Shown: piece by piece, positions 6,730 to 47,881 of the stretch | Layout of the letters: every line of letters starts with the position of its first letter | Numbering within the stretch: the stretch's first letter is position 1 | Assembly (NCBI GenBank): GCA_025450105.1 | Contig: JANWIA010000024.1 | Span: 229 to 64,228, forward strand | DNA from: Candidatus Doudnabacteria bacterium | GTDB taxonomy: Bacteria > Patescibacteriota > Doudnabacteria > UBA920 > O2-02-FULL-48-8 | Direction of reading: 5' to 3' | Length of the DNA stretch: 64,000 nt | Translations under genes and position numbers: made by a program | Notes under the pieces: generated by a model | Database searches by the model: none | Told to the model about the DNA's origin: nothing | Seen by the model: the letters and a program-made list of their open reading frames with translations, nothing else

Positions 6730-9378
6730 ATGTCTATATTTGGAAAATTATTTGGGAGTTCAAACGAAGGCGTTGTTAAACAATTCCAAAAAGTTGTTGA
6801 CCAGATCAATGCACTCGAGCCGGAATTCGAAAAGAAATCCCAAGACGAACTAAAGCAATTAACCGCCAATTGGAAAACCGGTTTGGCGGATTTGGATTTA
6901 GGTGAAACCAAAGAATATTTGGAAAAGATTTTACCGGAAGCATTTGCCGCAGTGCGCGAAGCCTCCAAGCGAACCATTGGCCAACGCCACTACGACGTCC
7001 AGTTAATTGGAGGTATTGCCCTGCATCGCGGTAATATTTCCGAAATGCGTACTGGTGAAGGAAAAACATTGGTCGCAACTTTGCCACTTTACCTCAATGC
7101 CCTAACCGGCCGCGGTGCACATTTGATTACAGTCAACGATTATTTGGCGCGCTGGCAAGCTTCTTGGATGGGACAAATTTATTACTACTTGGGCTTAAGC
7201 ACCGCTTCGATTCAACACGAACAGGCATTTCTATACGACCAGACTTTCCAGCCGGAAGAGGAAGAGGTTAAACAAATCGAATCGCAAGTCCAAGGTTTAG
7301 TCTTGGATGTAAAACACATGCGGCCAATCAATCGCCGCCAAGCTTACGCCGCGGATATTACTTATGGCACCAACAACGAATACGGTTTTGATTATTTGCG
7401 CGACAACATGGTCGTTGACCCGTCACAGATGGTCCAGCGCGATTTGCATTTTGCTATTGTTGACGAAGTCGATTCCATTTTGATTGACGAAGCCCGCACG
7501 CCGTTGATTATTTCCGCGCCCGACACTGAACCAACAGATAAGTATTATGATTTTGCCAAGATAGTCGACAAGCTGGACGAAAAAACGGATTACAATGTCG
7601 ATGAAAAACACCGCGCCGCAACCTTAACTGAAGCGGGAATTGTAAGATTGGAACAGTTGCTGAATATCAAAAACATTTACGATAAGGACGGTATCACGAC
7701 CATCCACCACATTGAACAGGCGTTGCGCGCCCGAACTTTATTTAAGAAAGACATTAATTACGTTGTTAAGGACAACGAGATTATTATTGTCGATGAATTC
7801 ACTGGCCGGTTAATGTATGGCCGCCGCTATTCGGAAGGCTTGCACCAGGCGATTGAAGCCAAGGAAAATGTAAAGATCCAACAGGAAAGCAAAACGTTGG
7901 CGACAATCACTTTCCAAAATTATTTCCGTTTGTACCACAAATTGGGTGGCATGACCGGTACTGCCGAAACAGAAGCCGAAGAATTCCACAAGATTTACAA
8001 TTTGGAAGTCGTGCAAATCCCGACCAACAAACCGATGGTTAGGAAAGATTTGCCGGATCAGGTTTTTAAGAATGTCCCTGGAAAATTTGACGCGGTCATT
8101 CAGGCCATCAAAGAAAAATACAAAACGGGACAGCCGGTTTTGGTTGGTACTATCAGCATTGAAAAGAATGAAATTTTGTCGCAGATGCTGACCCAAGCAG
8201 GCGTGCCACACGAATTATTGAACGCCAAAAACCACGAACGTGAAGCGCAGATTATTTCCCAAGCCGGGCGTTTGGGCGCCGTAACCTTGGCAACCAACAT
8301 TGCCGGCCGTGGTGTCGACATTATTTTGGGCGGCAATCCGGCCGATCCTAAAGAACAGGAAAAAGTTAAAGAACTCGGCGGTCTTTCGGTAATTGGTACC
8401 GAACGTCATGAATCGCGCCGCATAGACAATCAGTTGCGTGGACGCGCTGGCCGACAAGGCGATCCAGGTTCGTCACAATTTTTCTTGTCCTTGGAAGATG
8501 ATTTGATGCGCTTATTCGGCGGTGATCGTATTGGCCGCATGATGCAAACTCTTGGAATTCCAGATAACCAACCAATCGAAGCCGGATTAATTAACAAATC
8601 CATTCAATCCGCGCAGGGAAAAATTGAAGGGCTGAACTTTGATACCCGTAAACACGTTTTAGAATATGATGATGTCATGAACAAACAGCGTGGCGTCATT
8701 TACAAAAAGCGCCGCGAGATTTTGTCGCCCGAAAAGGATTTGACCGAACAGGTGTTGCAGGCCATTGAACAGGAAATTGCCGATGTGGTTAATTTCCACT
8801 TTGGTCAGGAAACAATTGACCGCAAGGAAATTTTTGAGGCAATTAATACTATCATGCCAATTAAGCCCGAAGATGTTGGTCAGGATTGGGATGACATTCA
8901 AACCATCAATCATTTGGTAGAAATGGCGCGAAATGCTTTTGAACAAAAAAAGACCAAACTTGGTCCGGATACAATGAAACAGATGCAGAGGTTTGTCTAT
9001 TTACGGATCATTGACCAGTTGTGGCAACAGCATTTGGACACCATGGAACATTTGCGCGACTCTGTACGTTTGCGCAGTTACGGCCAACGCGATCCGTTGC
9101 AGGAATTTAAGCGCGAAGGGTTCCAATTATTTGAAAATCTTTTAAAGGAAGTTGATAGCCAGGTTGTGCATACTATTTTTAAAGTTGATGTCGTGCAGCA
9201 ACCGGTAACTCGGAGGCAAGAGTCAGGAGGCAGGAGTCAAGCACTGGCAACTGACGGCTCAGAAATCGGCCGCAATGACCCATGCCCTTGTGGTAGTGGT
9301 AAGAAATATAAACGATGTGGATTGTTACAAACCGAGGAGCATAAAAATAATCTTGTCAAGATGCAAGGAACTATTTGA
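6730..9378 (+). CDS. secA: Preprotein translocase ATPase SecA
   Basis: DEAD-like motor motifs and a C-terminal zinc-binding CPCGSGKKYKRC are present. The length is 882 aa. Confidence 0.95.
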   Translation: MSIFGKLFGSSNEGVVKQFQKVVDQINALEPEFEKKSQDELKQLTANWKTGLADLDLGETKEYLEKILPEAFAAVREASKRTIGQRHYDVQLIGGIALHRGNISEMRTGEGKTLVATLPLYLNALTGRGAHLITVNDYLARWQASWMGQIYYYLGLSTASIQHEQAFLYDQTFQPEEEEVKQIESQVQGLVLDVKHMRPINRRQAYAADITYGTNNEYGFDYLRDNMVVDPSQMVQRDLHFAIVDEVDSILIDEARTPLIISAPDTEPTDKYYDFAKIVDKLDEKTDYNVDEKHRAATLTEAGIVRLEQLLNIKNIYDKDGITTIHHIEQALRARTLFKKDINYVVKDNEIIIVDEFTGRLMYGRRYSEGLHQAIEAKENVKIQQESKTLATITFQNYFRLYHKLGGMTGTAETEAEEFHKIYNLEVVQIPTNKPMVRKDLPDQVFKNVPGKFDAVIQAIKEKYKTGQPVLVGTISIEKNEILSQMLTQAGVPHELLNAKNHEREAQIISQAGRLGAVTLATNIAGRGVDIILGGNPADPKEQEKVKELGGLSVIGTERHESRRIDNQLRGRAGRQGDPGSSQFFLSLEDDLMRLFGGDRIGRMMQTLGIPDNQPIEAGLINKSIQSAQGKIEGLNFDTRKHVLEYDDVMNKQRGVIYKKRREILSPEKDLTEQVLQAIEQEIADVVNFHFGQETIDRKEIFEAINTIMPIKPEDVGQDWDDIQTINHLVEMARNAFEQKKTKLGPDTMKQMQRFVYLRIIDQLWQQHLDTMEHLRDSVRLRSYGQRDPLQEFKREGFQLFENLLKEVDSQVVHTIFKVDVVQQPVTRRQESGGRSQALATDGSEIGRNDPCPCGSGKKYKRCGLLQTEEHKNNLVKMQGTI

Positions 9379-9387
9379 AATAAACTT

Positions 9388-10596
9388 ATGCCAAACAGTA
9401 ATCTCAGTAGTGCAAAAAACGCAAAGAACGATGAGTTTTATACCCAGTACAGCGATATTCAAAAAGAGATTGAAGCGTATTTGGAATACAACCCAGATGT
9501 ATTCCGCGACAAGGTGGTGTATTGCAACTGTGACGATCCATATGAGAGTAATTTTTTTCGATATTTTGTGCTCAATTTCAAGAAACTTGGATTGAAGCAG
9601 CTTATTACTACTAGCTATAAACCTTCACCCGTTGCCAATACACAATTGGGATTGTTGGGTGATGATAAAACTCTTACGAAATCAAAAGGCCGTCCTAAGT
9701 TAACCGCCAACAAGTTCATTATCAACGAAGTGCATGATATAGATGGTAATGGTGAGTTCAACTTAAAAGATGTCGCTAAGCAGTTAAAGGCTAACAAACA
9801 TAACGAATGGACACCACTAGAAGGCGAAGGCGACTTCCGTAGCGACGAGTGTGTTGACCTGCTTAACCAATCCGATATCGTGGTAACGAATCCACCGTTC
9901 AGTCTGTTTCGCGAATATGTTAAACAACTTTTTGATTATAAAAAAAAGTTTGTGATTATTGGTAATAAAAACAACGTGACATCGAAGGAAATTTTTCCCT
10001 TGTTTAAAGCCAATAAAATGTGGTCAGGAAGAACAGAATGGTCTGGTGGGTTGTGGTTCGTAACGATGGATGACGGTGATGTTGACAAGGTGATTGATGG
10101 TGTCAACATGAAAAATGTGCCTGCTATTTGGTTGACAAATCTCGACCACGGACGTCGTCATCAACCATTGCCACTTATGACAATGGAAGAAAATTTGAAA
10201 CACAGCAAACACAAAGAAATTAAAGGTAAAAAGGCATATGATAAATATGACAATTACGATGCTATAGAAGTGTCATTTACAGATGCTATCCCAAGTGATT
10301 ATGACGGCGTAATGGGTGTACCGATTAGTTTTTTGGACAAATATAATCCCGACCAATTTGAAATTGTTGGTATAACTTCTGGAAGAGATGAATTTGAAAG
10401 TAGGCCTTCAAAAAAGTACTTAAACCCCCAACAACATAATCCGAATGGCACCATAACGAATGGAAGTAAAGCAAATACTCGTGCGACAATTCTGTTAAAG
10501 AATATTCCTTCCGATATTTATTACACCGCAGATAATGCGAGCGGACCCCTTATGATTGCGTATGCGAGAATTTTAATTAAGCATAAGAAAAAATAA
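9388..10596 (+). CDS. N6-adenine DNA methyltransferase, EcoRI-methylase-like family
   Basis: The N-terminus reads KNAKNDEFYTQ and the catalytic NPPF motif (VVTNPPFSLF) is present. The gene starts 9 nt after the secA stop. Confidence 0.8.
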   Translation: MPNSNLSSAKNAKNDEFYTQYSDIQKEIEAYLEYNPDVFRDKVVYCNCDDPYESNFFRYFVLNFKKLGLKQLITTSYKPSPVANTQLGLLGDDKTLTKSKGRPKLTANKFIINEVHDIDGNGEFNLKDVAKQLKANKHNEWTPLEGEGDFRSDECVDLLNQSDIVVTNPPFSLFREYVKQLFDYKKKFVIIGNKNNVTSKEIFPLFKANKMWSGRTEWSGGLWFVTMDDGDVDKVIDGVNMKNVPAIWLTNLDHGRRHQPLPLMTMEENLKHSKHKEIKGKKAYDKYDNYDAIEVSFTDAIPSDYDGVMGVPISFLDKYNPDQFEIVGITSGRDEFESRPSKKYLNPQQHNPNGTITNGSKANTRATILLKNIPSDIYYTADNASGPLMIAYARILIKHKKK

Positions 10597-10597
10597 T

Positions 10598-11770
10598 ATG
10601 ATAACAACTTTAAAAACAAACATTACTGTTAAAGATATTTGCGAAGGGTTCGTTTATAACGAACTGGAAGGTAAAGGTCTATTCGGTTTGTCTGGCAAGC
10701 TCACTATTCAGCCGGAGTATCAGCGTAACTATCTATATAAAGATGAAAAGCGAGAAGCTAGCGTTATTGAATCAATTCTCAAAAAATATCCAATAGGTTT
10801 GATTTACTTTAATAAAGTAAATAAGGATAAATTCGAAGTTTTGGATGGACAACAACGCATTACTAGTATTGGACGTTTTGTAACTGGTAAATTTCCTATA
10901 AAAGATGAAAATGGTCACGAGCAATATTTCGATGGCATGGCCCCAGAGAAACGAACTAGAATTGAGAATACCAAACTACTGATTTACGAATGTGAAGGAG
11001 AAGAAGCTGATATTATGAACTGGTTTGAAACTATCAATATTGCCGGGATTCCACTGAATGAACAAGAAAAAAACAATGCGGTATATTTTGGACCATTCGT
11101 AACACATGCCAAGCAAGAATTTAGTAACAGTAAAAATGCGAACATTCAGAAGTGGAACTCTTATATAAATGGTACTGCTAGACGTCAGGATTTTTTGCAT
11201 ACAGCTCTAGATTGGGTAAGTGCTTCTAAAGGTATTACTATCCGTGAATATATGAGTAGTCATCGTCGCGCTACAGATATAAAGGAATTAAAAACTTACT
11301 TTAATAATGTACTGGATTGGGTTTCTGGAGTGTTTACCGATGTAGAGACTGAGATGCGTGGGCTTGAATGGGGACGTTTATATGAAAAATTTCACAAGAA
11401 AAATTATAATCCTGAAAAACTTTCAGGAGAAGTACAGAAATTCCTAACTGACAGTTTTGTAACAGATCGAAAAGGTATTTTTGAATATATCCTTGGTGGG
11501 TCTCAAGACAAAAAATTACTCAATATAAGAGTTTTCAGTGAAGCTGTAAAGAAAGACACGTACTCAAAGCAAACTGCCGAAGCCGAAAAAAAAGGAAAAT
11601 CAAATTGCTCGTATTGTGCTATTGGACATGATGCCAACAAGAGTAAGATTTGGAAACTTTCCGAAATGGATGCTGATCATGTCACAGCTTGGAGTAAGGG
11701 AGGTAAAACAGCAATAAATAACTGTGAAATGTTATGTAAACCTCACAATCGTGCAAAGGGCAACAGGTAG
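10598..11770 (+). CDS. DUF262 (ParB-like nuclease/NTPase) plus C-terminal His-Me finger (DUF1524/HNH-like) nuclease, GmrSD/SspE-like architecture
   Basis: The N-terminal half has IQPEYQRNYLY and LDGQQRITSI. The C-terminal half has CSYCAIGHD ... DADHVTAWSKGG ... NNCEMLCKPHNRAKGN. The gene starts 1 nt after the methyltransferase stop. Confidence 0.75.
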   Translation: MITTLKTNITVKDICEGFVYNELEGKGLFGLSGKLTIQPEYQRNYLYKDEKREASVIESILKKYPIGLIYFNKVNKDKFEVLDGQQRITSIGRFVTGKFPIKDENGHEQYFDGMAPEKRTRIENTKLLIYECEGEEADIMNWFETINIAGIPLNEQEKNNAVYFGPFVTHAKQEFSNSKNANIQKWNSYINGTARRQDFLHTALDWVSASKGITIREYMSSHRRATDIKELKTYFNNVLDWVSGVFTDVETEMRGLEWGRLYEKFHKKNYNPEKLSGEVQKFLTDSFVTDRKGIFEYILGGSQDKKLLNIRVFSEAVKKDTYSKQTAEAEKKGKSNCSYCAIGHDANKSKIWKLSEMDADHVTAWSKGGKTAINNCEMLCKPHNRAKGNR

Positions 11771-11805
11771 GTAACTAGGTCAGTAAATAAATTTTTATTT
11801 TTTTT

Positions 11806-12177
11806 ATGAAACAGTTGTTATTGGAAAAAGCGGTGTATTATAACCCAAATCAAGGTCCCGAGCACGGGACTGATGTTACGGATGATTTAAGAGCCCAAAT
11901 TGTAGACGGAGCGCTATTCTATAACGGTATTTATAATAATATATTTCCTGATAACTTTAAAAGAATAGACAAAAAATTAAGAATAGAGCTAACGTATAGA
12001 GGGAAAAAGTATCTTAAAATTTATTCGGAAAATGAAAAAATAAACTTACCAAGAGATCTTGGTTCAGTAATTAATAAGTGGTGGGAAAGTAATTGGTTTC
12101 AAGTTTTTGTTTTTGTAAGTGCTATTTTGGGTGTTTTGGGTTTTATTATTACAATAGTTGGGCTAGTAAATAATTGA
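11806..12177 (+). CDS. Hypothetical small protein with C-terminal transmembrane helix
   Basis: The 123-aa protein ends in a hydrophobic tail (WFQVFVFVSAILGVLGFIITIVGLV). It follows the nuclease and has an SD-like context. Confidence 0.5.
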   Translation: MKQLLLEKAVYYNPNQGPEHGTDVTDDLRAQIVDGALFYNGIYNNIFPDNFKRIDKKLRIELTYRGKKYLKIYSENEKINLPRDLGSVINKWWESNWFQVFVFVSAILGVLGFIITIVGLVNN

Positions 12178-12199
12178 AGTATTGTTTACTATAATACTA

Positions 12200-12228
12200 A
12201 AAACCGCAGCTCGATTGCCGCGGTTTTT
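12200..12228. terminator. Bidirectional intrinsic terminator
   Basis: The hairpin AAAACCGCAGC-tcgatt-GCCGCGGTTTT is flanked by an A-run and a T-run. Confidence 0.75.
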
Positions 12229-12252
12229 AAGTTTTTGTTTTGAACGATCGCA

Positions 12253-12561
12253 TTAGATTTTAGAAATAATGCTTGAATAACGGTCTGAGTTGTTTGGATT
12301 GTAATCTAGTCTAATATCAAAAGTATTGTTAGTTACTTCGATACAAGTAATTTCAGAGACATTAAATCTTCTCCAAGCGGGAATTGATCCAGTTTGGCTA
12401 TATCCTTCCGTTTGATAACCATCAAATAGTGTTTTTCCAGTAGAACTTACATAGACTATGTATGGGTCGATGGTTCGACTCAAAGAATTTTCGTAATTTA
12501 CAATAATACTTTTTTGGTTTTCTATTGCAAATTGAATCTCGTTCTCAAATTTGTAATTCAT
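12253..12561 (-). CDS. Small WYL-like domain protein (hypothetical)
   Basis: The 102-aa protein has a WYL-like pattern (DPYIVYV ... AWRRFNVSEITCIEV). An SD-like AAAGGAG lies upstream. Confidence 0.4.
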   Translation of the reverse strand: MNYKFENEIQFAIENQKSIIVNYENSLSRTIDPYIVYVSSTGKTLFDGYQTEGYSQTGSIPAWRRFNVSEITCIEVTNNTFDIRLDYNPNNSDRYSSIISKI

Positions 12562-12743
12562 AAATATTTTTACTCCTTTCTTTTTTAATTCTCGACCTTT
12601 GCTAATTTTAATTTAGGTTTCTCTCACTAACCTAACAAAATTATTTAAGATTGTGGATTATTAAGCCGATTTTAGCATTAACTAGCGAAAAAATCAAGCA
12701 CCTGCCGGCTAGATTACAGCATAAACCAACAACCCTGCCAAGT

Positions 12744-12772
12744 TGACACTCTATTGAACCCACGGTAACATA
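12744..12772 (+). promoter_or_regulatory. Candidate promoter TTGACA-N17-TAACAT in an approximately 430-nt non-coding stretch
   Basis: There is no downstream ORF before the 12987 terminator. It could drive a roughly 230-nt small RNA. Confidence 0.3.
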
Positions 12773-12986
12773 GCCCAAGTATTGAAATGGTATAATTACT
12801 ACATAAGTTCATTCAAACTGAATAGTGACAATCAAAGTATTGCTTTAACTCGGTGTCTTTTTATTGATATTTACTTACTTATTTAGTTCTCGCGTGTTCG
12901 ACAGGCCACAACAAATTACAGAAGTTTGGGATGATCAACACCCAAGAACGTAAAAAGTTAATACCAAATAAATAGACAAAAGAAAA

Positions 12987-13019
12987 GAGCCCCATCCAGT
13001 TGCTGGATGGGGCTCTTTT
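12987..13019. terminator. Bidirectional intrinsic terminator at the left edge of the GC-rich island
   Basis: A perfect hairpin AGAGCCCCATCCAG-ttgc-TGGATGGGGCTCT is flanked by A-runs and T-runs. Confidence 0.8.
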
Positions 13020-13040
13020 TGGTTTCGGCGGCACATCGAC

Positions 13041-13262
13041 TTAGGCTGCGGCTTTGAGGGCGACGCCGCAGCAGAAACAGAACTTGAAGCTTGGATCTGC
13101 GGCCCACACGTGGTGGAACTCTTCGCAGCGCTCCAGTGCCGAGAACTTGGGATCGACTTCGGTGCCGCACTCCTTACAGAAGCGGCACGAGATCGAGTCG
13201 TCCTTCCTCGGCTTCTCCACGCGTTGGTGCAGGGCTACGTTGGCGCAGGTTGTTGCTGGCAT
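13041..13262 (-). CDS. Small Cys/His-rich protein (73 aa), hypothetical
   Basis: An ATG start follows a GAAGGA SD. The protein contains CRFCKECGT ... CEEFHH ... CFCCG. It lies 18 nt downstream of the 52-aa ORF in a GC-rich context. Confidence 0.5.
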   Translation of the reverse strand: MPATTCANVALHQRVEKPRKDDSISCRFCKECGTEVDPKFSALERCEEFHHVWAADPSFKFCFCCGVALKAAA

Positions 13263-13280
13263 TGCATCCTTCTTTCCTTG

Positions 13281-13439
13281 TTACGCGGCGGTGATGCCAA
13301 GACGCTTGGCCTTCTCGAGGTTCTTGTCGTGGTCGTGGTTGGTGACGCACTCGCAGGTGCCCTTGAGGCAGGCTTTGAGCCGCGCTCGCCAAATGGCAAG
13401 CCTGAGTGTTTCCAGGTCGAGCTTCTTAAGATGGCGCAC
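13281..13439 (-). CDS. Small protein (52 aa, GTG start), hypothetical
   Basis: An AAGGAGG SD lies 8 nt upstream of GTG. The protein reads VRHLKKLDLETLRLAIWRARLKACLKGTCECVTNHDHDKNLEKAKRLGITAA. It is absent from the ATG-only ORF track. Confidence 0.5.
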   Translation of the reverse strand: MRHLKKLDLETLRLAIWRARLKACLKGTCECVTNHDHDKNLEKAKRLGITAA

Positions 13440-13463
13440 TTTTCTATCCTCCTTGAATGACGG

Positions 13464-13495
13464 ATTATACTAGCATTTACTGGCCAAATTGTCAA
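13464..13495 (-). promoter_or_regulatory. Strong sigma70-like promoter (TTGACA-N17-TGcTAGTAT/TATAAT) driving the minus-strand small-protein operon
   Basis: Read on the minus strand, the sequence is TTGACAatttggccagtaaatgcTAGTATAAT. It is followed by an SD and the GTG start. Confidence 0.65.
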
Positions 13496-13532
13496 TCCAA
13501 GCGTAGAATAGGGATGAAGCAAGAGGTGGGTT

Positions 13533-13754
13533 ATGCCAACAATGACGCTTCGTCTCGTTACGGAAAAAGGAGAAGAGACCATTCGGGAATATCGCTGCGA
13601 TTGGCCGGGTCTTTGCCAGGACCTTGCAGTGACCTCTGTCGGTCTCAGTGAATTCGGAACGCTGATAAGCTTTTGCAGTAACCATCTGAAGATGTATGCC
13701 GAGCAGGGGGAGTCAGAAGGAGGTTTGGGTGCCCGAGATTACTATGACGATTGA
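13533..13754 (+). CDS. Small protein P1 (73 aa), paralog of P2, with a C-x-C/C-x2-H metal-binding-like motif
   Basis: An SD-like AAGAGGTG lies 4 nt upstream. The protein contains YRCDWPGLC ... FCSNH. Confidence 0.5.
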   Translation: MPTMTLRLVTEKGEETIREYRCDWPGLCQDLAVTSVGLSEFGTLISFCSNHLKMYAEQGESEGGLGARDYYDD

Positions 13755-13914
13755 AGTTGATGGGCAAGTGGATCGGATAAGTAAATATTTCTGCGATTCG
13801 CGGAATTGTCTGGAAGAGGCGAGTGAACTACATGTAATTGCGAGCCTGCGGCAAAGGGTTTTTCTTTGCCCCAAACACGCGCTCGAGCTCTATCACAGAC
13901 AGATGAGAAAATGA
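13729..13914 (+). CDS. Small protein P2 (61 aa, GTG start), paralog of P1
   Basis: A GAAGGAGG SD lies 5 nt upstream of GTG. The protein contains YFCDSRNC ... LCPKH. It overlaps the end of P1 by 26 nt, consistent with translational coupling. Confidence 0.5.
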   Translation: MPEITMTIEVDGQVDRISKYFCDSRNCLEEASELHVIASLRQRVFLCPKHALELYHRQMRK

Positions 13915-13949
13915 GGCTCAGCCAGCAATGGTTGGGCCTTTCTCTTAGG

Positions 13950-14090
13950 CAAAATAAAAAGGCGACTACGGTCTTCTGTAGTCGCCCTCTCGTGGAGTTG
14001 TGTTAGTGTCCGATGTGCTTCGCTGGTTGCCCTTATGGGTCCATGAATTCGTACATAGGCTTTCCTCCTGTCCTGGATAAATGATAAACC
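13950..14090 (-). ncRNA. Compact promoter-to-terminator unit (about 130 nt) carrying only a 7-codon ORF (MYEFMDP); candidate small RNA or leader peptide
   Basis: The promoter is at 14081-14109. An AGGAGG SD lies 7 nt upstream of the ATG at 14056 and the stop is at 14033-14035. The terminator is at 13951-13986. Confidence 0.35.
13951..13986 (-). terminator. Intrinsic terminator (hairpin GGCGACTACGG/CTGTAGTCGCC plus T-run on the minus strand)
   Basis: On the minus strand the hairpin is followed by TTTTTATTTT. It also lies just after the P2 stop on the plus strand. Confidence 0.7.
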
Positions 14091-14109
14091 TATGTAATAA
14101 ATTTTGCAA
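14081..14109 (-). promoter_or_regulatory. Sigma70-like promoter TTGCAA-N17-TATCAT
   Basis: Read on the minus strand, the sequence is TTGCAAaatttattacataggttTATCAT. Confidence 0.5.
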
Positions 14110-14120
14110 AAGCTCATTTT

Positions 14121-14190
14121 GTCATTGCGAGGAGCGGAGCGACGTGGCAATCTTCTAGAATAAGATTGCTTCGCTTCGCTCGCAATGACA
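14121..14190. repeat. Imperfect 70-nt palindrome built from two inverted copies of the motif GTCATTGCGAG...GCAATCTT
   Basis: The outer 11-bp arms are GTCATTGCGAG and CTCGCAATGAC. The inner arms are GCAATCTT and AAGATTGC. The motif recurs at 20963-20995. Confidence 0.6.
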
Positions 14191-14207
14191 GGGTAAGCAA
14201 AGTAAAA

Positions 14208-14237
14208 AGGGTCTCACCGTGTGGTGGACCCTTTTTT
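14208..14237 (-). terminator. Intrinsic terminator (GGGTC...GACCC hairpin plus T-run) overlapping the stop of the Zn-ribbon gene
   Basis: The sequence reads AAAAAGGGTCtcaccgtgtggtGGACCCTTTTTT. It is bidirectional. Confidence 0.7.
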
Positions 14238-14375
14238 GGCAGCAGCCAGTTCTTTGACTTCTGCCTTGTTCTTAAATTCCCGTTTGCATTTGCTGCACTG
14301 GACTGTGTTGTCCCAGAAGACAACCTCGCCGCCACATGTGGGGCAAGGTGTTTCGAGCCTGCCGTAATCATCCAT
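14214..14375 (-). CDS. Small zinc-ribbon protein (53 aa), hypothetical
   Basis: An AAGGAG SD lies 5 nt upstream of ATG. The protein reads MDDYGRLETPCPTCGGEVVFWDNTVQCSKCKREF and so on. Confidence 0.5.
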   Translation of the reverse strand: MDDYGRLETPCPTCGGEVVFWDNTVQCSKCKREFKNKAEVKELAAAKKGSTTR

Positions 14376-14384
14376 TTCTACTCC

Positions 14385-14564
14385 TTAACGAAAGATCGTG
14401 AATCGGGCGATTGCTAGGAACATGGTTCCAAAGATTAGTCCCGTTAGCAACCGCTGCCTGAAGCTTGAACAATCAAATTGCTTTTCGGCAATGTTCACAA
14501 CAAGCTGCCAGAGAAGCGCGTTCAGGCTTAGGAACAACAGCACACGAAGCGTTTCATCCGACAC
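14385..14564 (-). CDS. Small hydrophobic/membrane protein (59 aa, GTG start), hypothetical
   Basis: A GAGGTAGGTG SD is present. The stop overlaps the SD of the downstream Zn-ribbon gene. The protein is hydrophobic (LRVLLFLSLNALLWQLVV ... LLTGLIFGTMFLAIARF). Confidence 0.45.
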   Translation of the reverse strand: MSDETLRVLLFLSLNALLWQLVVNIAEKQFDCSSFRQRLLTGLIFGTMFLAIARFTIFR

Positions 14565-14578
14565 GATTCACCTACCTC

Positions 14579-14740
14579 TTACTTTATGGCTTGGTTGAGG
14601 GTTCTTGGTTTTTCCTTGTACCCTCCACAATCAACGCAGTCTTCACGTTTGCAGAGACGGATTGAGTTCGGGTTCTTTGGATCCAAGCGATAGTGGTCGC
14701 CTTCGGCGTGGCCGCATTCACAGTATTTCGCGAATTTCAA
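14579..14740 (-). CDS. Small zinc-ribbon protein (53 aa, TTG start), hypothetical
   Basis: An AAGGAGG SD lies 6 nt upstream of TTG. The protein reads MKFAKYCECGHAEGDHYRLD ... CKREDCVDCGGY. Confidence 0.45.
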   Translation of the reverse strand: MKFAKYCECGHAEGDHYRLDPKNPNSIRLCKREDCVDCGGYKEKPRTLNQAIK

Positions 14741-14841
14741 TTTTATCCTCCTTGATGAGAAAGCGTATCACGGATTGCTATGCAAATCAAGCTTCTATGG
14801 CGTGCAGGAATTCCAAAGTATATAATATTCAAGGACATTTT

Positions 14842-15672
14842 ATGGACACACTTTTTTCGATTATTACGCCAACCTACAACCGCGCCTACATTTTGCCAAA
14901 AGCAATTGAATCATTACTGGCCCAGACCTATAAGAATTGGGAAATGATAATTATTGATGACGGCTCAACCGATAACACCAAGGAAGTTGTCGGGCGGTTT
15001 AATGATCCGCGCATCAAATATTTTTATCAGAACAACCAAAAGCAATGCGCGGCCAGGAACAAAGGTTTGGAATTGGCGCAAGGTCAATGGGTTTGCTATT
15101 TGGACAGCGACAACGAATTATTTCCGAACTATTTGGAAACTATGCTGGCAGAAATTCAGGCAGATCCCAATGTGGTTTTGTTGTTGCCCAAGGGCCGGCA
15201 CACAAAAGAGCTTTACGAAAATGGCAAGCTGATTAAGTCGGTGGATGACGCGGAAAATTTTCCCGAAACGCTAACACTCAAAGATTTAGCGGACAGGAAA
15301 TTGCATGCTGATATGAATGGATCAATGCACCATCGAAAAATAATTTCCGATGGGATACGCTTTGACCAAGCGGCCAGTCCATTGGAAGATTGGGATTTAT
15401 TTTTATCGATCGGCCAGAAATATCCGGATAATTTTGTTTATGTGACTAAGGAACTCTATCATTATGTGCAGCGTCACGGCGGCGACGGATTAGTAGCAAA
15501 TACCGGTTTCCGGAATTTAGCAAAGACTTACGAATATATTTTTAATAAACACAAGGCCAGTAGTCTTCTGCAAGGGCAAACCTGGTATCCTCGGAAGGTT
15601 GAGGAATATAACCGCTTGGCTGAGGAATCGGAAAACGGATCGAGTGTGGGGCTCCACGAGAAAACTATATGA
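14842..15672 (+). CDS. Family 2 glycosyltransferase
   Basis: The N-terminus reads FSIITPTYNRAYILPKAIESLLAQTY ... IIDDGSTD. I chose the ATG at 14842 behind a TATAAT. The track's longer ORF from 14605 runs through the minus-strand small genes and I do not accept that extension. Confidence 0.75.
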   Translation: MDTLFSIITPTYNRAYILPKAIESLLAQTYKNWEMIIIDDGSTDNTKEVVGRFNDPRIKYFYQNNQKQCAARNKGLELAQGQWVCYLDSDNELFPNYLETMLAEIQADPNVVLLLPKGRHTKELYENGKLIKSVDDAENFPETLTLKDLADRKLHADMNGSMHHRKIISDGIRFDQAASPLEDWDLFLSIGQKYPDNFVYVTKELYHYVQRHGGDGLVANTGFRNLAKTYEYIFNKHKASSLLQGQTWYPRKVEEYNRLAEESENGSSVGLHEKTI

Positions 15673-16124
15673 AATACTTTCTCTTAAAATCGGAACCGGG
15701 CAGTTATTCAATCGACGACCTTAAGCGGGACAAAGAAACCGTTTGGACATCTATCCGTAATTATCGTGCCCGGAATATTATGCGCGACGAAATGCAGCCA
15801 GGTGATTTATTTTTATTTTATTATTCCATGTCTGACCCAACTGGTGTTGCCGGAGTTGGGAAAATTTTAGAAGTCGGGTTGCCAGACGTGACCGCGCTGG
15901 ATAAGAAGGATGATTATTACGATCCCAAAGCGACTAAGGAAAAGAATCCTTGGGTAGCACCGAAAGTTGGGTTTGTAAAAAAGTTTAAACGCATAGTAAC
16001 TTTGGATGAAATAAAAAAAGACAAGCAATTTGCCAATATGGTTCTTCTCAAAATTCCTAGACTGTCTGTTCAACCAGTTGAAGAAAAAGTGTATAATCTA
16101 ATAGTGAGGATGGGTAATAATTAA
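15669..16124 (+). CDS. EVE (PUA-like) domain protein
   Basis: The N-terminus is EVE-like (MKYFLLKSEPGSYSIDDL ... WTSIRNYRARNIMRDEMQPGDLFLFYYS). The gene overlaps the GT2 stop by 4 nt. Confidence 0.7.
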   Translation: MKYFLLKSEPGSYSIDDLKRDKETVWTSIRNYRARNIMRDEMQPGDLFLFYYSMSDPTGVAGVGKILEVGLPDVTALDKKDDYYDPKATKEKNPWVAPKVGFVKKFKRIVTLDEIKKDKQFANMVLLKIPRLSVQPVEEKVYNLIVRMGNN

Positions 16125-16133
16125 GAAACACCC

Positions 16134-16565
16134 ATGAATGATAAGAATAAGGTTAATTTAGTACTCGAGTTTATAAAAGGCCATAATTTAGGGGTATTAG
16201 CTACCGTTAACCGCGAAAATAAACCGGAAGCAGCTGTTATTGGTTTTTCGGAAACAGATGATTTTGAGATTTTATTCGCCACTTTTGAAAGTTCTCGCAA
16301 ATATAGTAACTTAAAAAAAGACGGTAACGTTGCTTTGGTCGTTGGTTGGGACCAGGGCAAGACTGTGCAACTTGAGGGTTTGGCGGAAGAAATTACTGAT
16401 CCGGCTAAGATTGAAAATTTTAAACGTGTTCATATGGCTAAGATTCCAACCGCTATTAAATGGTTAGGTCACAATGAGGAGAGGTTTTTTTCCATCAAAC
16501 CAAGATGGGCTCGATTTACGGATTTGGCTGTTGACCCATTTGAAATTTTTGAAATAAATTTTTAA
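16134..16565 (+). CDS. Pyridoxamine 5'-phosphate oxidase-like FMN-binding split-barrel protein
   Basis: The 143-aa protein has a PNPOx-like fold pattern. Confidence 0.55.
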   Translation: MNDKNKVNLVLEFIKGHNLGVLATVNRENKPEAAVIGFSETDDFEILFATFESSRKYSNLKKDGNVALVVGWDQGKTVQLEGLAEEITDPAKIENFKRVHMAKIPTAIKWLGHNEERFFSIKPRWARFTDLAVDPFEIFEINF

Positions 16566-16597
16566 AGGTCGGTATCTAAAAATAATTAACAAGTACT

Positions 16598-16786
16598 ATG
16601 AAACAAAAAGATTACTTATTGTGTAGTGCCTTTATTTTTTTGGCCTTGGCCGTTATGCATGCTTTGAGAATTTTAAATTCCTGGCCAGCAAGAATTGCGG
16701 AGTTTGATGTGCCAATGGCAGTGAGTTATTTTGCCTTGGTCATTGCCGCGTTTCTATCGTATACCGGTTTTAAGCTAAGCAAATAA
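16598..16786 (+). CDS. Small membrane protein (62 aa), hypothetical
   Basis: The protein has two hydrophobic segments. Confidence 0.4.
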   Translation: MKQKDYLLCSAFIFLALAVMHALRILNSWPARIAEFDVPMAVSYFALVIAAFLSYTGFKLSK

Positions 16787-17387: not shown

Positions 17388-17663
17388 AAGAAGAACCGCC
17401 AATCGGTTCTTGTGGGGGAGAACGCATTCTCAACAGAATGTTTGGTCCACGACTCTTCTGCTTCGCACCGACACCAGTCGGTAACGGCAGACGACCAAAG
17501 GCTCCACGTCGATACACGATCGACTCACACCACAGTATTCCGGATTGGCGGGTAACCACCACACTACAGTTATTTATAGAAGCAGTCAAACTGCTGTATT
17601 AGTGTATAATTTATCTTTATTTCATAATATGTTTTATAATTAAGAGGCAATTAACTTTTACAT

Positions 17664-23328: not shown

Positions 23329-23372
23329 AACACCCCTAGGATCTTGACAAATGGGGTGTTTTTTGCTAGTAT
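23329..23372 (+). promoter_or_regulatory. Terminator hairpin (AACACCCC/GGGGTGTT plus T-run) with an embedded promoter TTGACA-N17-TAGTAT
   Basis: The -35 box lies in the hairpin loop. The promoter architecture matches that at 13464-13495. Confidence 0.6.
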
Positions 23373-23390
23373 TGGAGAAATTCAGAACCA

Positions 23391-23436
23391 CAGTATTGGC
23401 CGCAGTGTGTTTACAGTATTAGCCGCAGTGTGTTTA
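23391..23436 (+). repeat. Tandem 23-nt direct repeat (CAGTATTGGCCGCAGTGTGTTTA x2, one mismatch) in a 5' leader
   Basis: It lies immediately upstream of an AAGGAGG SD. Confidence 0.7.
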
Positions 23437-23448
23437 AGGAGGAGTATC

Positions 23449-23751
23449 TTGCACAATCGTCGCAATCGGCGCCGAGGTAGTCGAGCCCACTGGATCCACT
23501 GGGAAGTCATGTTTGATGGAGAGGCACACGAGACGTGGGCTCCAACCAAGAAGGCAGCCAAGAGCTTTGTGCGTCGGCGAGTTGCTGATGGCAAACGCCA
23601 CAAAATGTCGGACCTGTCACTGGACCAATTCACGGCGACTCCGACAGGGACGAAGCCGGGCACTCCCACTCCGTCGCGAGTCACCTCACCGGCAGCAATG
23701 CCAACCCCGGCCACTCGGCCGGTCGCGCAGCGCTTACTCTTTGAACTCTAA
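23449..23751 (+). CDS. Small basic protein with Pro/Thr-rich C-terminus (about 100 aa, TTG start), hypothetical, GC-rich
   Basis: An AAGGAGG SD lies 6 nt upstream of TTG. The protein reads HNRRNRRRGSRAHWIHWEVMFDGEAHETW ... TPTPSRVTSPAAMPTPATRP. Confidence 0.45.
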   Translation: MHNRRNRRRGSRAHWIHWEVMFDGEAHETWAPTKKAAKSFVRRRVADGKRHKMSDLSLDQFTATPTGTKPGTPTPSRVTSPAAMPTPATRPVAQRLLFEL

Positions 23752-23774
23752 AGGGTAAGCGCTGTTTTCTTTTG
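23729..23774 (+). terminator. Intrinsic terminator (9-bp stem AGCGCTTAC/GTAAGCGCT plus T-rich tract)
   Basis: The terminator overlaps the stop codon at 23749-23751. Confidence 0.65.
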
Positions 23775-23802
23775 TTTACGCAAAATATGGTACAATTAAT
23801 CC

Positions 23803-34312: not shown

Positions 34313-36388
34313 ATGCCTGAACTAAACGACATCACAGTCTTCGCCAAAACCAGCTTCCGTAACCGGGAAGTGGCTTTTGGCATCCGCAGAGATGACCGCC
34401 GCCGCCATATGTATGTAATTGGAAAAACTGGTATGGGTAAAACCACTCTAATCGAAAATATGGTTATCCAGGACATTCTCAATGGCGAGGGTGTAGCCTT
34501 TGCGGACCCGCACGGCGATTCCGTGGAAAAGGTTTTGAATTACATTCCGTCCAACCGCATCAACGATGTCATTTACTTTAATCCGGCCGATACAGATTTC
34601 CCAATTGCCTTTAATCCGTTAGAAGCGGTTGACCCAAAGTACAAGCATTTGGTGGCATCTGGTTTGATGGGCGTCTTTACCAAAATCTGGGCTGGGGTCT
34701 GGAGCCCGCGCATGGAATATATTTTGAATAACACCATCCTGGCGCTTTTGGATTCTCCGGGCAACACCATGCTTGGTATCGCCCGCATGCTAGTCAACAA
34801 AACTTACCGCAAAAAAATTGTCGATAATATTAAGGATCCGGTTGTCCGGTCTTTCTGGGTCGATGAATTCGCCAATTACAACGATAAGTTCCGAACCGAG
34901 GCTATTGCACCGATCCAAAACAAAGTCGGACAATTTTTGTCATCGGCGATTATCCGTAACATTGTCGGACAAACCAAGAGTACGATTGATTTACGCCAAA
35001 TTATGGATGAACGCAAAATCTTTTTGCTTAATTTATCCAAGGGCCGCATTGGCGAGGACAGTTCGGCGTTGCTCGGAGCCATGATCATCACCAAATTGCA
35101 ATTGGCAGCCATGAGCCGGGTCGATGTACCAGAAGAAGAACGCAAGGATTTTTATTTGTATGTCGACGAATTCCAAAATTTTGCTACGGAATCTTTTGCT
35201 AGTATTTTATCTGAAGCCCGTAAATACCGCTTGAATTTGATTGTCGCCCACCAATATATCAACCAGTTGAGCAACGATAAGAACACCGTTGTCCGCGATG
35301 CGATCTTTGGCAACGTCGGGACATTGATTGTTTTCCGCGTCGGGGCTGATGACGCCGAGTTTCTGGAAAAAGAATTTGAACCGACCTATACTTTGAACGA
35401 TTTACTGAACCTGACCAAGTTCAACATCTATTTAAAATTAATGATCAACGGTGTCGCCTCAACTCCTTTTTCAGCACTGACCTTGCCGCCAATTTCCCAA
35501 CCAACACAAAACGAGGACACCGTGGTTAAGGTTTCGCGGGAACGCTACGGTACCGCCCGGCAAATTGTCGAGGAAAAAATCCACAAGTGGTTAGGTTCCG
35601 AATACCATGCCGAAGCCGCCCGTGTGGAAAGCGATTCGGTTAACGAAGATGATGCCCAGGAAAGTTTCCGGTTCAAGGAGCAAGTAAAACTGGATACCAA
35701 AACCGGTATGCCGGTTGCTGAAACTTTGAACCGCCCGGACCAAGTTACACCTTCAGCTCCTATGGCAGCTCCAAAACCTGCAACTCCTGTGCCTCCAAAA
35801 CCTGCAACGCCGCCACCCGCAGCTCGACCAATAGTACCTCCACCAAAACCAGTACCGCCGCGGCCAGCACAGCCAAAGGTAGAACGACCCCCAGAACAAC
35901 GTCCACAACAACAACCCGAACGCCGACAGCTTGAACGGAGATTCAAGCAGTCTTCTTCGCATCCGCAACGCCGCAGCACGGACAGGCAAAGCGAAAGACC
36001 AAAGCCTAAATCCAATAATCCGGTATGGGAAACAGTCAATAAACTTTCCCAGGACAAGCTTAAAGAAAGTGTTGAAAAGACTAACAGTGCTTTAGAATCA
36101 ATTAGTAAAACCTTAGAAACCTCCTTAAAAACGGAATTAAAAAAGGTAGAGGTCAACAAACCGGAACCGTGGCCAGAACCGGAACAAAGGATTTGGGAAC
36201 CAACACCAGAGCCAATGCCAACTATCCCTGAAGAGCAAGAGCAGGATAATGATCCATTCCCACCCGGCGGCAATGCACAGAGTCATTTGACTATGATTCC
36301 GCATAAAGACCACCCAGGAATAGCAGATGCCCTAAAAAAGGTCCCTAAGTTATCAAAAGTAAAACCGGGCGACAAGATTAAACTCTAA
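34313..36388 (+). CDS. VirD4/TraD/FtsK-HerA-like P-loop ATPase with Pro-rich low-complexity C-terminal tail
   Basis: Walker A is IGKTGMGKTT and Walker B is FYLYVDEFQNF. The tail contains PAPKPATPVPPKPATPPPAARP repeats. Confidence 0.6.
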   Translation: MPELNDITVFAKTSFRNREVAFGIRRDDRRRHMYVIGKTGMGKTTLIENMVIQDILNGEGVAFADPHGDSVEKVLNYIPSNRINDVIYFNPADTDFPIAFNPLEAVDPKYKHLVASGLMGVFTKIWAGVWSPRMEYILNNTILALLDSPGNTMLGIARMLVNKTYRKKIVDNIKDPVVRSFWVDEFANYNDKFRTEAIAPIQNKVGQFLSSAIIRNIVGQTKSTIDLRQIMDERKIFLLNLSKGRIGEDSSALLGAMIITKLQLAAMSRVDVPEEERKDFYLYVDEFQNFATESFASILSEARKYRLNLIVAHQYINQLSNDKNTVVRDAIFGNVGTLIVFRVGADDAEFLEKEFEPTYTLNDLLNLTKFNIYLKLMINGVASTPFSALTLPPISQPTQNEDTVVKVSRERYGTARQIVEEKIHKWLGSEYHAEAARVESDSVNEDDAQESFRFKEQVKLDTKTGMPVAETLNRPDQVTPSAPMAAPKPATPVPPKPATPPPAARPIVPPPKPVPPRPAQPKVERPPEQRPQQQPERRQLERRFKQSSSHPQRRSTDRQSERPKPKSNNPVWETVNKLSQDKLKESVEKTNSALESISKTLETSLKTELKKVEVNKPEPWPEPEQRIWEPTPEPMPTIPEEQEQDNDPFPPGGNAQSHLTMIPHKDHPGIADALKKVPKLSKVKPGDKIKL

Positions 36389-37557: not shown

Positions 37558-37773
37558 ATGCCTGACCGGGTTTCGCGCAAGCCTCAACCGGTAAGCTATC
37601 CGGTTGGGCCAAGAGTCGGTTTCGGCGAACTGCTTCGGCAAGTGCCGACCACACCGACTGCAGAACAACTGCAAGAACTTTCCTGGGAAGGAAACGGACT
37701 CCCGCCCGCGCCCGGATACAAACACACTCCGGACGAGATGTTCGTCCTCCCAGTCCCGCGCCGGTTGATGTGA
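37558..37773 (+). CDS. Small Pro-rich protein (71 aa), hypothetical, GC-rich
   Basis: A GGGGGAA SD-like sequence lies 5 nt upstream. The gene sits between two strong terminators. Confidence 0.35.
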   Translation: MPDRVSRKPQPVSYPVGPRVGFGELLRQVPTTPTAEQLQELSWEGNGLPPAPGYKHTPDEMFVLPVPRRLM

Positions 37774-41523: not shown

Positions 41524-41598
41524 TGGGGAGTAGCCAAGCGGTAAGGCAACGGACTCTGAATCCGTCATTCGAAGGTTCGATCCCTTCCTCCCCAGCCA
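41524..41598 (+). tRNA. tRNA-Gln (anticodon CUG)
   Basis: The cloverleaf has a U1-A72 acceptor stem, anticodon loop CUCUGAA, T-loop TTCGATC and an encoded CCA. Confidence 0.8.
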
Positions 41599-41628
41599 AA
41601 AAATCATCACGGAAACGTGGTGGTTTTT

Positions 41629-42114
41629 TTAACAAAAAAAACTGCCAAAACCTGGGTAGGCTTTGGCAGTGTGGGTCATCTTGTCGTGGTCCACGGAGTT
41701 GAGGTAACGCACTAGGACCCAGTACCATCTATTGGCCTCATCTGGATCTCCGTTGGGATCAACGACCTTGATTTTTTGTCCTCTTTTGTTGTAGATGATT
41801 GCCCTCTCCAGCGTAACGTCCTCGATTGGAACAGGTAGGCCTGGCACGCGAGTTACGGTAACGCTGTACCAAAAGACCACGCCGCCCTTGTCGTGAAGGT
41901 TCTTGATCAGGCCGGTTTTGTGTCTGGTGGTTTTCATCCCACCATAGTAGGTAAACGGATCGATGAGCAGGTTCCTGACGTCGATCGGGGAAATCTTGGG
42001 CGCTTGAACCTGAACGGGTTTGGGTCGATTTGTCAGTTGGCTGACTCTCGGAGGTATGAGAAGTAGGCTCGCGACCAGGAATCCGAACATGAACACCACG
42101 TGGGATCGGTTCAT
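41629..42114 (-). CDS. Secreted or membrane-anchored hypothetical protein (161 aa), GC-rich
   Basis: An N-terminal hydrophobic segment is present. An AAGGAGG SD and a TTGACG-N17-TAGCAT promoter lie upstream. Confidence 0.5.
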   Translation of the reverse strand: MNRSHVVFMFGFLVASLLLIPPRVSQLTNRPKPVQVQAPKISPIDVRNLLIDPFTYYGGMKTTRHKTGLIKNLHDKGGVVFWYSVTVTRVPGLPVPIEDVTLERAIIYNKRGQKIKVVDPNGDPDEANRWYWVLVRYLNSVDHDKMTHTAKAYPGFGSFFC

Positions 42115-46978: not shown

Positions 46979-47155
46979 TCAATTTCTCTGATGCCGATTC
47001 CGGGCCGGATCGAAAGGCGGGGAATTGCTTCTGCGCCCGCGGCACACGCGTCGGATGCGGACCTGGTCGTCGGTGATCCTCGCGAAGAGGTTTCGTCGGG
47101 CCGAGAACAGGACCGGGTACCGGGCACTGTGGTTGCGAACGCAATCTGTTTGCAT
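46979..47155 (-). CDS. Small Arg-rich ORF (58 aa), hypothetical, GC-rich
   Basis: A GGAGGT SD lies 6 nt upstream of ATG. The protein has a very basic composition. Its coding status is uncertain. Confidence 0.3.
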   Translation of the reverse strand: MQTDCVRNHSARYPVLFSARRNLFARITDDQVRIRRVCRGRRSNSPPFDPARNRHQRN

Positions 47156-47279: not shown

Positions 47280-47308
47280 ATTGACAAGATCCCAATATTT
47301 TGGTAATG
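47280..47308 (+). promoter_or_regulatory. Promoter TTGACA-N17-TAATGT
   Basis: The -35 box is consensus. Confidence 0.5.
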
Positions 47309-47314
47309 TTTGTA

Positions 47315-47823: not shown

Positions 47824-47881
47824 CCAAAAAAGTTTCCAAATAATATTCTTTTGCTATACTTTACTAAAGGAAATAAACACT

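Follow-up and report, generated by a model that had tools for sequence, protein, structure and literature searches.

In a 64,000-nt stretch of contig JANWIA010000024.1 from a Candidatus Doudnabacteria bacterium (the window), a GC-rich island at positions 12987-14760 is probably a real, horizontally acquired cluster of cassettes that encode orphan Cys/His mini-proteins. We propose that the island is a patchwork of four self-contained cassettes, each made of a promoter, a short leader with a Shine-Dalgarno (SD) sequence, one to three tiny open reading frames (ORFs) and an intrinsic terminator. Such cassettes would have been acquired horizontally from GC-richer, SD-using donors, most plausibly from the mobilome, and would have lodged in a hypervariable accessory locus downstream of secA, beside a low-GC type II restriction-modification (RM) pair. 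A preliminary description of the same DNA had already proposed the compact architecture, the foreign origin and the absence of any known protein family, all of which stand; its count of three units, its GC content of about 55% and its terminator at the right edge do not.

The base composition of the island departs from that of its surroundings. Its GC content is 50.7%, against a mean of 43.0% for the window, and 0 of 1245 windows of the same size (1774 nt) reach this value, making it the most GC-rich 1.77 kb of the window. The contrast first put at about 55% versus about 40% is therefore present, although overstated in size: 56.2% is found in the left third only (12987-13532), followed by 50.0% (13533-13950), 44.9% (13951-14204) and 48.6% (14205-14760). 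The upstream flank (11000-12986) is unusually AT-rich at 33.4% GC, and the downstream flank (14761-16760) is host-like at 40.3%. Two ORFs in the left third, A and B, carry a high-GC codon signature that is a textbook coding pattern, with GC at codon positions 1/2/3 of 0.60/0.40/0.79 in A and 0.55/0.49/0.77 in B, compared with 0.49/0.35/0.45 in the host.

The island is organized as four compact promoter-to-terminator units, of which A-B, a unit with just a 7-codon ORF, and E-F-G are on the minus strand and C-D is on the plus strand. What had been counted as three operons are indeed compact transcription units, and there are four of them once the 7-codon-ORF unit is included. A promoter scan called eight promoter-like sites in the island, compared with 3.0 +/- 1.7 in shuffled sequences, and three of them are placed to drive units. 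The A-B promoter (13467-13495, minus strand; TTGACA-17-TAGTAT with an upstream TG, 10/12 matches) is the scan's counterpart, called at 13495-13467(-), of a minus-strand promoter noted earlier at 13464-13495. The C-D promoter (13481-13509, plus strand; TGGCCA-17-TAGAAT, 9/12) is divergent from the A-B promoter and overlaps it. The short unit has its own promoter at 14081-14110 (minus strand; TTGCAA or TTTGCA, a spacer of 17-18 nt and TATCAT, 9/12). For E-F-G, a weak candidate promoter at 14762-14790 (minus strand; TTGATT-17-TACGCT, with an extended -10 element, TGn, the spacer ending in TGA) was read by eye and was not called in the scan; this putative promoter would form the right edge of the island.

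Terminators close the units at their other ends. At the left edge of the island, the A-B unit ends in a bidirectional intrinsic terminator (12983-13019, both strands) with a perfect 17-bp stem, 100% complementary, and T-runs on both strands. The short unit ends at a 14-bp hairpin with a T-run (13956-13991, minus strand), about 40 nt beyond the stop codon of D. E-F-G ends at a hairpin (~14204-14238, minus strand) with A/T runs on both sides, which contains the TGA stop of G, just as a terminator overlapping the final stop had been reported. Of the two terminator hairpins said to bound the island, the left one is present; the right edge is instead a 5' end with the weak candidate promoter.

All seven small ORFs that had been described, including those with non-ATG starts, are present. 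ORF A (13281-13439, minus strand) encodes 52 amino acids from a GTG start with the SD AAGGAGG 8 nt upstream, and contains a C-x4-C-x-C-x3-H-x-H motif (GC 0.60; GC at third codon positions, GC3, 0.79). ORF B (13041-13262, minus strand; 73 amino acids, ATG start, SD AAGAAGGA) has nine Cys and three His, with the knuckles CRFCKECG ... CFCCG (GC 0.60, GC3 0.77). On the plus strand, ORF C (13533-13754; 73 amino acids, ATG start, SD AGAGGTGG) is annotated in the source record and shows the Cys/His pattern C..C...C..H. ORF D (13729-13914, plus strand) encodes 61 amino acids from a GTG with the SD GAAGGAGGT 5 nt upstream, or 72 from an upstream ATG, and its start region overlaps the end of C by 26 nt. 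The C and D proteins align over their whole length (BLASTP E = 0.001-0.002) and share Y-x-C-D, C and C-x2-H, with no detectable similarity between their DNA; likeness as proteins and not as DNA is expected of diverged protein paralogues, and the paralogy suggested before is borne out, in a weak form. The gene products on record for the source contig match only C and D, as sequenced here.

The E-F-G unit shows tight junctions between its ORFs, all on the minus strand. ORF E (14579-14740; 53 amino acids, TTG start, SD AAGGAGG) has the motif CxCxH-x4-H ... C-x4-C-x2-C, with CECGH-x4-H at the first knuckle. ORF F (14385-14564; 59 amino acids, GTG start, SD GAGGTAGGTG directly after the E stop) has two hydrophobic segments, at about residues 7-25 and 39-56 as read from the sequence. 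ORF G (14214-14375; 53 amino acids, ATG start) has a four-Cys zinc-ribbon motif, CPTC(GG), a 12-residue spacer and CSKC(K), and its SD, TAAGGAG, contains the TAA stop of F. The stop/SD overlaps noted at first reading are thus there in the letters: the TAA of E is followed at once by the SD of F, and the TAA of F lies inside the SD of G (TTAAGGAG). The 15-nt leaders of A and E, which belong to different units, are nearly identical (TCAAGGAGGATAGAA versus TCAAGGAGGATAAAA).

A second line of evidence comes from the translation signals. An SD precedes eight of eight island starts, those of the seven ORFs and of the 7-codon ORF, with duplexes to the canonical anti-SD sequence between -5.5 (B) and -12.4 kcal/mol (D); the strong SD sites and the GTG and TTG starts first described are confirmed by one correctly spaced SD per start. 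Of the 14 copies of AGGAGG on the two strands of the window, the island has four, each located 6-9 nt before a start codon. Among the 20 small SD-led ORFs of the window, 7 belong to the island, which makes up 2.8% of the sequence.

The host does not use this signal in the same way. Host starts have a median anti-SD duplex of -0.2 kcal/mol, with 7% at or below -6, and an SD-led start within the first 80 codons was found for 6 of 41 long host ORFs, compared with 10 of 41 at internal control positions. In seven related loci of the Candidate Phyla Radiation (CPR; L001, L002, L004-L006, L011 and L016), 0-8% of starts are at or below -6 kcal/mol, and Clostridia, scored as a control for this crude method, gave 43% of starts versus 7% at internal sites. 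Genes of the host lineage thus show no SD enrichment, and their start-upstream regions pair with the anti-SD less well than internal sites do. Against this background, the eight SD-led island starts are out of character independently of GC, and the foreign origin proposed earlier gains a second, independent line of support, to which the GC3 of A and B adds. An SD does occur in a few genes of the host (msrB, a P-type ATPase), so the host ribosome is presumably able to use one. A literature search on SD use in Patescibacteria returned nothing relevant. As a separate observation, many starts in the Patescibacteria lineage follow a TATAAT-like box within a few bases, a sign that its mRNAs may be leaderless or have short leaders.

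The proteins themselves are orphans. As first stated, they belong to no recognised family: nothing reached threshold in Pfam, PHROG, NCBIfam or PADLOC, and no homologue was found. A and F have no match at all in these four collections. B gives many zinc-ribbon matches below threshold (Pfam DZR, 18.4 bits against a cut-off of 27.3) and G gives 28 Pfam matches of zinc-ribbon type, all under the cut-off; the best zinc-ribbon scores of B and G are 18.4 bits, against gathering cut-offs of 25-27.3 for families that include DZR, Zn_ribbon_6 and the YjdM type. Both proteins do contain two knuckles, CxxC ... CxxC, separated by a spacer of beta-hairpin length (CRFCKEC ... CFCC in B, CPTC-12-CSKC in G). 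Thus the earlier zinc-ribbon call holds for the Cys motifs; it goes beyond the profile scores of B and G and beyond the models of C and E, the two proteins modelled, whose AlphaFold confidence is low (predicted local distance difference test score 47.6 for C, with D as alignment, and 61.8 for E). C scores 15.3 bits against DUF7455 (PF24254; cut-off 27, E = 0.014), for which D has no match. G matches PADLOC PDC-S64 (E = 5.7e-6) across 35 residues that form a zinc-ribbon segment, and the six other peptides have no match among the PADLOC defence models, which together assign no island protein to a defence system. The ordinary families that the preliminary description had named as a check are likewise missing: profiles of ribosomal L31, L32, L33, L36 and S14 and of rubredoxin do not match A-F at E <= 1, and G has a rubrerythrin-like match only (14 bits, cut-off 32).

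Searches for relatives were equally empty. Among 5.8 billion proteins, B has no candidate (none shares three 5-residue words) and C finds itself as the sole match; among 1.84 billion representatives, E has no match at E <= 0.001. A tblastn search of the seven peptides against phage and plasmid records gave nothing at E <= 1, and scans of the IMG/VR viral contigs found no relatives of A, B, E, F, G or a C/D profile, which also stood for D. PDB sequence searches with E, C and A gave nothing meaningful, a PCNA match being set aside as its target is an artificial triple fusion with no significant stretch, and Foldseek found no match in the PDB for the E model at E <= 0.001. For peptides of 50-70 amino acids such searches see fairly close relatives only, and "orphan" here means that a protein has no close family.

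From their sequence, the seven ORFs are likely translated, and several points weigh against reading the island as an acquired cluster of true genes. The starts were picked partly for having an SD, and the figure of eight out of eight is inflated accordingly. Codon-periodicity scores clearly favour the proposed frame for just A, B and G of the seven ORFs, and ORF length by itself is weak evidence of genes at the island's GC. Every zinc-ribbon family match is below threshold and the AlphaFold models are of low confidence. Since no homologue was found for any ORF, conservation lends no support to translation or selection. The neighbourhood in the window contains no integrase, flanking direct repeats or phage genes that would mark an insertion event, and the source contig comes from a metagenome assembly.

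The position of the island fits an acquired element. The SecA protein (6730-9378) has its best match, at 74% identity, in the soil metagenome-assembled genome (MAG) L001, which places the contig in Patescibacteria/CPR; the next matches, about 56% identical, are from Kerfeldbacteria-like and other CPR MAGs. Gene order is shared with L001 up to secA and resumes at an EVE-domain gene, with unrelated genes between. L001 has a membrane protein and a nuclease there. In the window, positions 9388-10596 encode an EcoRI-type adenine methylase and positions 10598-11770 a type II restriction enzyme that combines GmrSD_N and HNH domains (PADLOC REase_II, E = 3.6e-87); next come ORFs for an unknown protein of 123 aa and for one of 102 aa, then the island and a GT2 glycosyltransferase. 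The 102-aa ORF to the left of the island is weakly WYL-like (PADLOC E = 1e-4), has 31% GC and carries its own SD. The secA-EVE gap is a variable accessory locus made of pieces of at least three different compositions. The neighbours of the island are secA, the RM pair, GT2, EVE, UDG and Ku, with no phage similarity found, and no direct repeats or att-like sites were found at its flanks. A SecA genome scan revealed no relative whose borders match, whether the island is present in it or absent, and a metagenome scan with the GT2 protein no close relative (best match 56% identity, on a 1-kb contig).

Three further observations concern this locus. Upstream of the island, a low-GC block (9388-12561; 33-35% GC) comprises the RM pair, the 123-aa unknown and the WYL-like ORF. 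Between this block and the island, promoter-like sites are present at 12743-12771(+) (TTGACA-17-TAACAT) and at ~12788 (TGGTATAAT). The roughly 200 nt of AT-rich DNA that follow have no credible ORF and end at the bidirectional hairpin 12983-13019; this stretch, 12743-13019(+), may be a small RNA. In the UDG-Ku gap, at 17400-17589(-), a promoter TTGACT-17-TAGTGT is followed by the GC-rich sequence GGTGGTTACCCGCCAATCC..., which may be a non-coding RNA.

The island is not a singular feature: similar cassettes lie at 23.3, 37.6 and 47.0 kb, and the same design (GC higher by about 0.18, an SD ahead of a small ORF, a terminator and, in most cases, a promoter of its own) recurs at least three times in the window. 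The cassette at 23344-23775 (plus strand, GC 0.61) encodes an Arg-rich protein of 100 aa, whose ORF begins with the TTG at 23449 behind the SD AAGGAGG, and has a terminator at 23727-23765. Its promoter, TTGACA-17-TG-TAGTAT, has the same hexamers as the A-B promoter, and its leader contains two copies of a 23-nt direct repeat, ACAGTATTrGCCGCAGTGTGTTT (~23388-23433). The cassettes at 37558-37773 (plus strand; 71-aa SD-led ORF, GC +0.18 over the window mean) and 46979-47155 (minus strand; 58-aa SD-led ORF, GC +0.19, promoter 47236-47208(-)) are intergenic, each with a hairpin terminator. In L001, a 57-aa ORF at 12625-12798(-), directly downstream of secA and convergent with it, has a hydrophobic N-terminus, CxxC...CxxC, GC higher by 0.12, a GC3 of 0.72, the SD CAGGAGGAG and a hairpin terminator at its end. 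Neither the three window cassettes nor the L001 ORF has a Pfam match, and no sequence similarity was found among the cassettes or between the window peptides and L001.

This recurrence fits either repeated import or a native gene class. On the native reading, the cassettes would be lineage-specific small proteins, a class of GC-rich SD-led micro-genes (regulators or host-interaction factors, for example) kept by selection for special expression. It is supported by the three cassettes just described, which share the style of the island and lie in intergenic gaps, by the GC-rich, SD-led and terminator-bounded ORF that follows secA in L001, by the SD of msrB and the P-type ATPase, and by the island promoters, which match the host's own sigma-70-type promoters and are therefore not diagnostic of origin. 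However, no likeness in sequence was found among the cassettes or between the window peptides and L001, the locus is not syntenic with L001, and a GC3 of 0.77-0.79 would be hard to keep in a 43% GC genome without recent import. We regard the native reading as possible though unlikely, and continue to favour horizontal acquisition. A further-reaching form of acquisition is a doubtful extrapolation: a lineage that initiates without SD would repeatedly capture and keep tiny, GC-rich, SD-led and self-transcribed cassettes, with GC-richer bacteria or their phages as the source and perhaps the lineage's own bacterial host among them. The islets, at least four in 64 kb and one in L001, would then represent a class of orphan Cys/His mini-proteins, not previously described, for symbiont-host or defence interactions, with SD translation as a special regulatory channel.

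Several other features of the window stand apart from the cassettes. At 47281-47825(+), a promoter TTGACA-17-TAATGT is followed by about 500 nt at 57% GC without a credible ORF and by a 14-bp terminator (47785-47815); with a fold z-score of -3.3, no Rfam match at E <= 1 and no transfer-messenger RNA detected, it is a candidate structured RNA. A TrwB/VirD4-type type IV secretion coupling protein with a long Pro-rich tail is encoded at 34313-36388(+), and an SD-led 161-aa unknown ORF of GC 0.51 (41629-42114(-)) adjoins a tRNA-Gln (region 41524-42114).

Between C-D and E-F-G the island carries the short unit and a palindrome. The promoter-to-terminator unit with just a 7-codon ORF, placed earlier at 13950-14090, is recovered between the promoter at 14110-14081 and the terminator at 13991-13956; it is about 125 nt long, and its ORF, MYEFMDP (14033-14056, minus strand), lies behind the SD AGGAGG. 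The fold z-score of 13945-14076(-) is -3.6, dominated by the terminator, and the unit may be a small RNA, a micropeptide gene or a decayed cassette. No pairing of the short RNA with island start regions stands above background; with the F start region it reaches -27.2 kcal/mol, against a background of -17.1 +/- 5.4 with a minimum of -30.5. Next to the unit, at 14118-14190 (both strands), lies an imperfect palindrome in which a 33-nt motif, tGTCATTGCGAGGAGCGnAGCGACGnGGCAATC, is present as an inverted pair.

The 33-nt motif (tGTCATTGCGAGGAGCGnAGCGACGnGGCAATCc; window 14118-14190, L028 6163-6235 and L161-L280) is dispersed near-identically over unrelated, mostly GC-rich viral contigs, with several copies on some. 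Its core has at least 142 exact copies on at least 120 IMG/VR viral contigs; among the matches listed, these contigs average 60% GC and about 23% of the copies have an inverted partner 67-140 nt apart. A palindrome copy in a Nitrospirae MAG is 82% identical over 73 nt, two gut "Bacteriophage sp." records also contain the motif, and in a blastn search of the island against phages and plasmids the repeat motif (36 nt) is the sole match. No paper on the motif and no Rfam family were found. As an inverted pair of a dispersed palindromic motif, the 14118-14190 element resembles repetitive extragenic palindromes (REPs) and miniature inverted-repeat transposable elements; unlike REPs, which are species-specific, the 33-nt motif crosses phyla at near-identity, and no associated transposase was seen. 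Through this motif, the island has a loose link to a pool of mobile genes rich in GC.

That this cross-phylum motif lies inside the island, that GC and translation signals change abruptly at the island edges and that the source is a 64.6-kb MAG contig could also point to an assembly chimera or contaminant, in which 1.8 kb of DNA from a foreign organism was joined during metagenome assembly. Such an artefact would require two joins, and the repeat sits within the island, away from both ends. The terminator at one edge is shared by the island and its flank, the promoter at the other edge points away from the GT2 gene, and several other islets fit neatly into intergenic gaps. We therefore consider a chimera very unlikely.

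We find it less credible still that the GC-rich stretch codes for structured non-coding RNAs, a frequent content of GC-rich islands in AT-rich genomes, with the small ORFs incidental. At 50-60% GC, chance ORFs of 50-75 codons are no rarity, the short unit folds with the z-score given above, and the ORF-less 500 nt at 47.3 kb does resemble an RNA gene. However, for the three transcripts that bear ORFs, folding does not stand out from that of shuffled sequence (z = -1.15, -0.37 and -1.52), and a permissive Rfam search of the island returned terminator-like hairpins only; the check for structured RNA that accompanied the preliminary description is thereby answered with no signal in these units. 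Moreover, each ORF has a correctly spaced SD and paired Cys motifs, and in A and B GC3 is far above GC at second positions. In character, the three ORF-bearing units are mRNA-like and unlike RNA genes.

Equally improbable is that the ORFs are degraded pieces of one or two longer genes interrupted by stops or frameshifts: A and B share one frame and F and G another, each pair split by a single TAA, and the 7-codon unit could be a truncated cassette, but chance would give two shared frames about one time in nine, the downstream ORFs have their own SD at the upstream stop, as is typical of translational coupling, and neither read-through fusions of A+B and F+G nor the overlapping ORFs of 115-139 amino acids gain a Pfam match. 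The idea that a frameshift hides a single long gene was rejected. The statement that the island has no long ORF needs amending, in that these 115-139-aa ORFs exist in its 60%-GC part; they resemble antisense or shadow frames.

We compared the island with known systems. A moron is recognised by a promoter and a terminator of its own and by deviating GC content, which define the term (PMC3594210), and the island is similar to phage morons in having its own promoters and terminators, GC unlike that of its neighbours, small accessory genes and the look of horizontal acquisition. It differs in lying outside any recognisable prophage, with no phage genes nearby and no viral homologue found, and in having four cassettes back to back in a host lineage that does not use SD. 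By analogy the island may work like a set of morons, and we do not call it a moron, the phage context being absent.

For the products, the closest analogy is with the one-domain small zinc-finger micro-proteins with C(P)XCG motifs of Haloferax volcanii (PMC6562870, PMC11241148). Like these, the island proteins have fewer than 75 amino acids and paired Cys knuckles, with CPTCG in G and CKECG in B. The Haloferax proteins are native, archaeal and scattered, whereas those of the island are clustered, compositionally foreign orphans in a bacterium; each island protein has just one canonical motif, and its metal binding is putative.

Two further comparisons concern single proteins. With 53 amino acids and four Cys of ribbon type, G resembles Lar-type restriction-alleviation proteins and further small zinc-ribbon proteins that mobile elements carry, and it lies about 2.4 kb from a type II RM pair. 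Its scores for the Lar family (PF14354 / TIGR03655) are far below threshold (Pfam 13.9 bits versus 28.6; NCBIfam 11.5 versus 39.6; PHROG 599, E = 0.0036) and reflect generic CxxC knuckles only. F resembles type I toxin-antitoxin (TA) and holin-like membrane peptides in its 59 amino acids, its two hydrophobic helices and its compact unit. The scan gave no antisense promoter opposite F, and no antisense RNA, antitoxin partner or family match was found for it; a peptide coupled between two Cys-rich proteins is not a described TA layout. Lar-like anti-restriction, toxin-antitoxin and defence roles were each weighed, and the proteins could be placed in none of them.

Taken together, these features suggest how the island might work. 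The cassettes would be transcribed constitutively from sigma-70-type promoters, and the ORFs would be translated from their SD sequences, in part coupled. The products would be six orphan Cys/His-rich mini-proteins of 52-73 amino acids, probably Zn-binding to judge by their motifs, and F, a predicted two-helix membrane peptide of 59 amino acids whose activity may be tied to E and G. E-F-G could then be a translationally coupled three-part module built around the membrane peptide. By analogy with the systems above, the mini-proteins may be small binders or modulators of nucleic-acid or protein targets, linked to defence, counter-defence or host interaction. Any one specific function is an unlikely guess at best, and anti-defence or toxin-like roles are such guesses. 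Its anatomy, its foreign composition and translation signals and its orphan products are plain to see; on present evidence the island is a well-formed, functionally opaque accessory islet and not a new mechanism.

If the ORFs are translated, the island would add seven unannotated or orphan micro-proteins, and their position near an RM system makes them reasonable candidates in a search for new small modulators of defence or anti-defence. The island also provides a clear and verifiable example of foreign cassettes in the ultra-small genome of a CPR bacterium, marked by GC and SD as two independent signals. Its main interest lies in this discordance of GC and SD in an SD-less CPR lineage, a discordance that recurs elsewhere in the window. 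In such a lineage, the SD could serve genome-wide as a cheap marker of recent imports.

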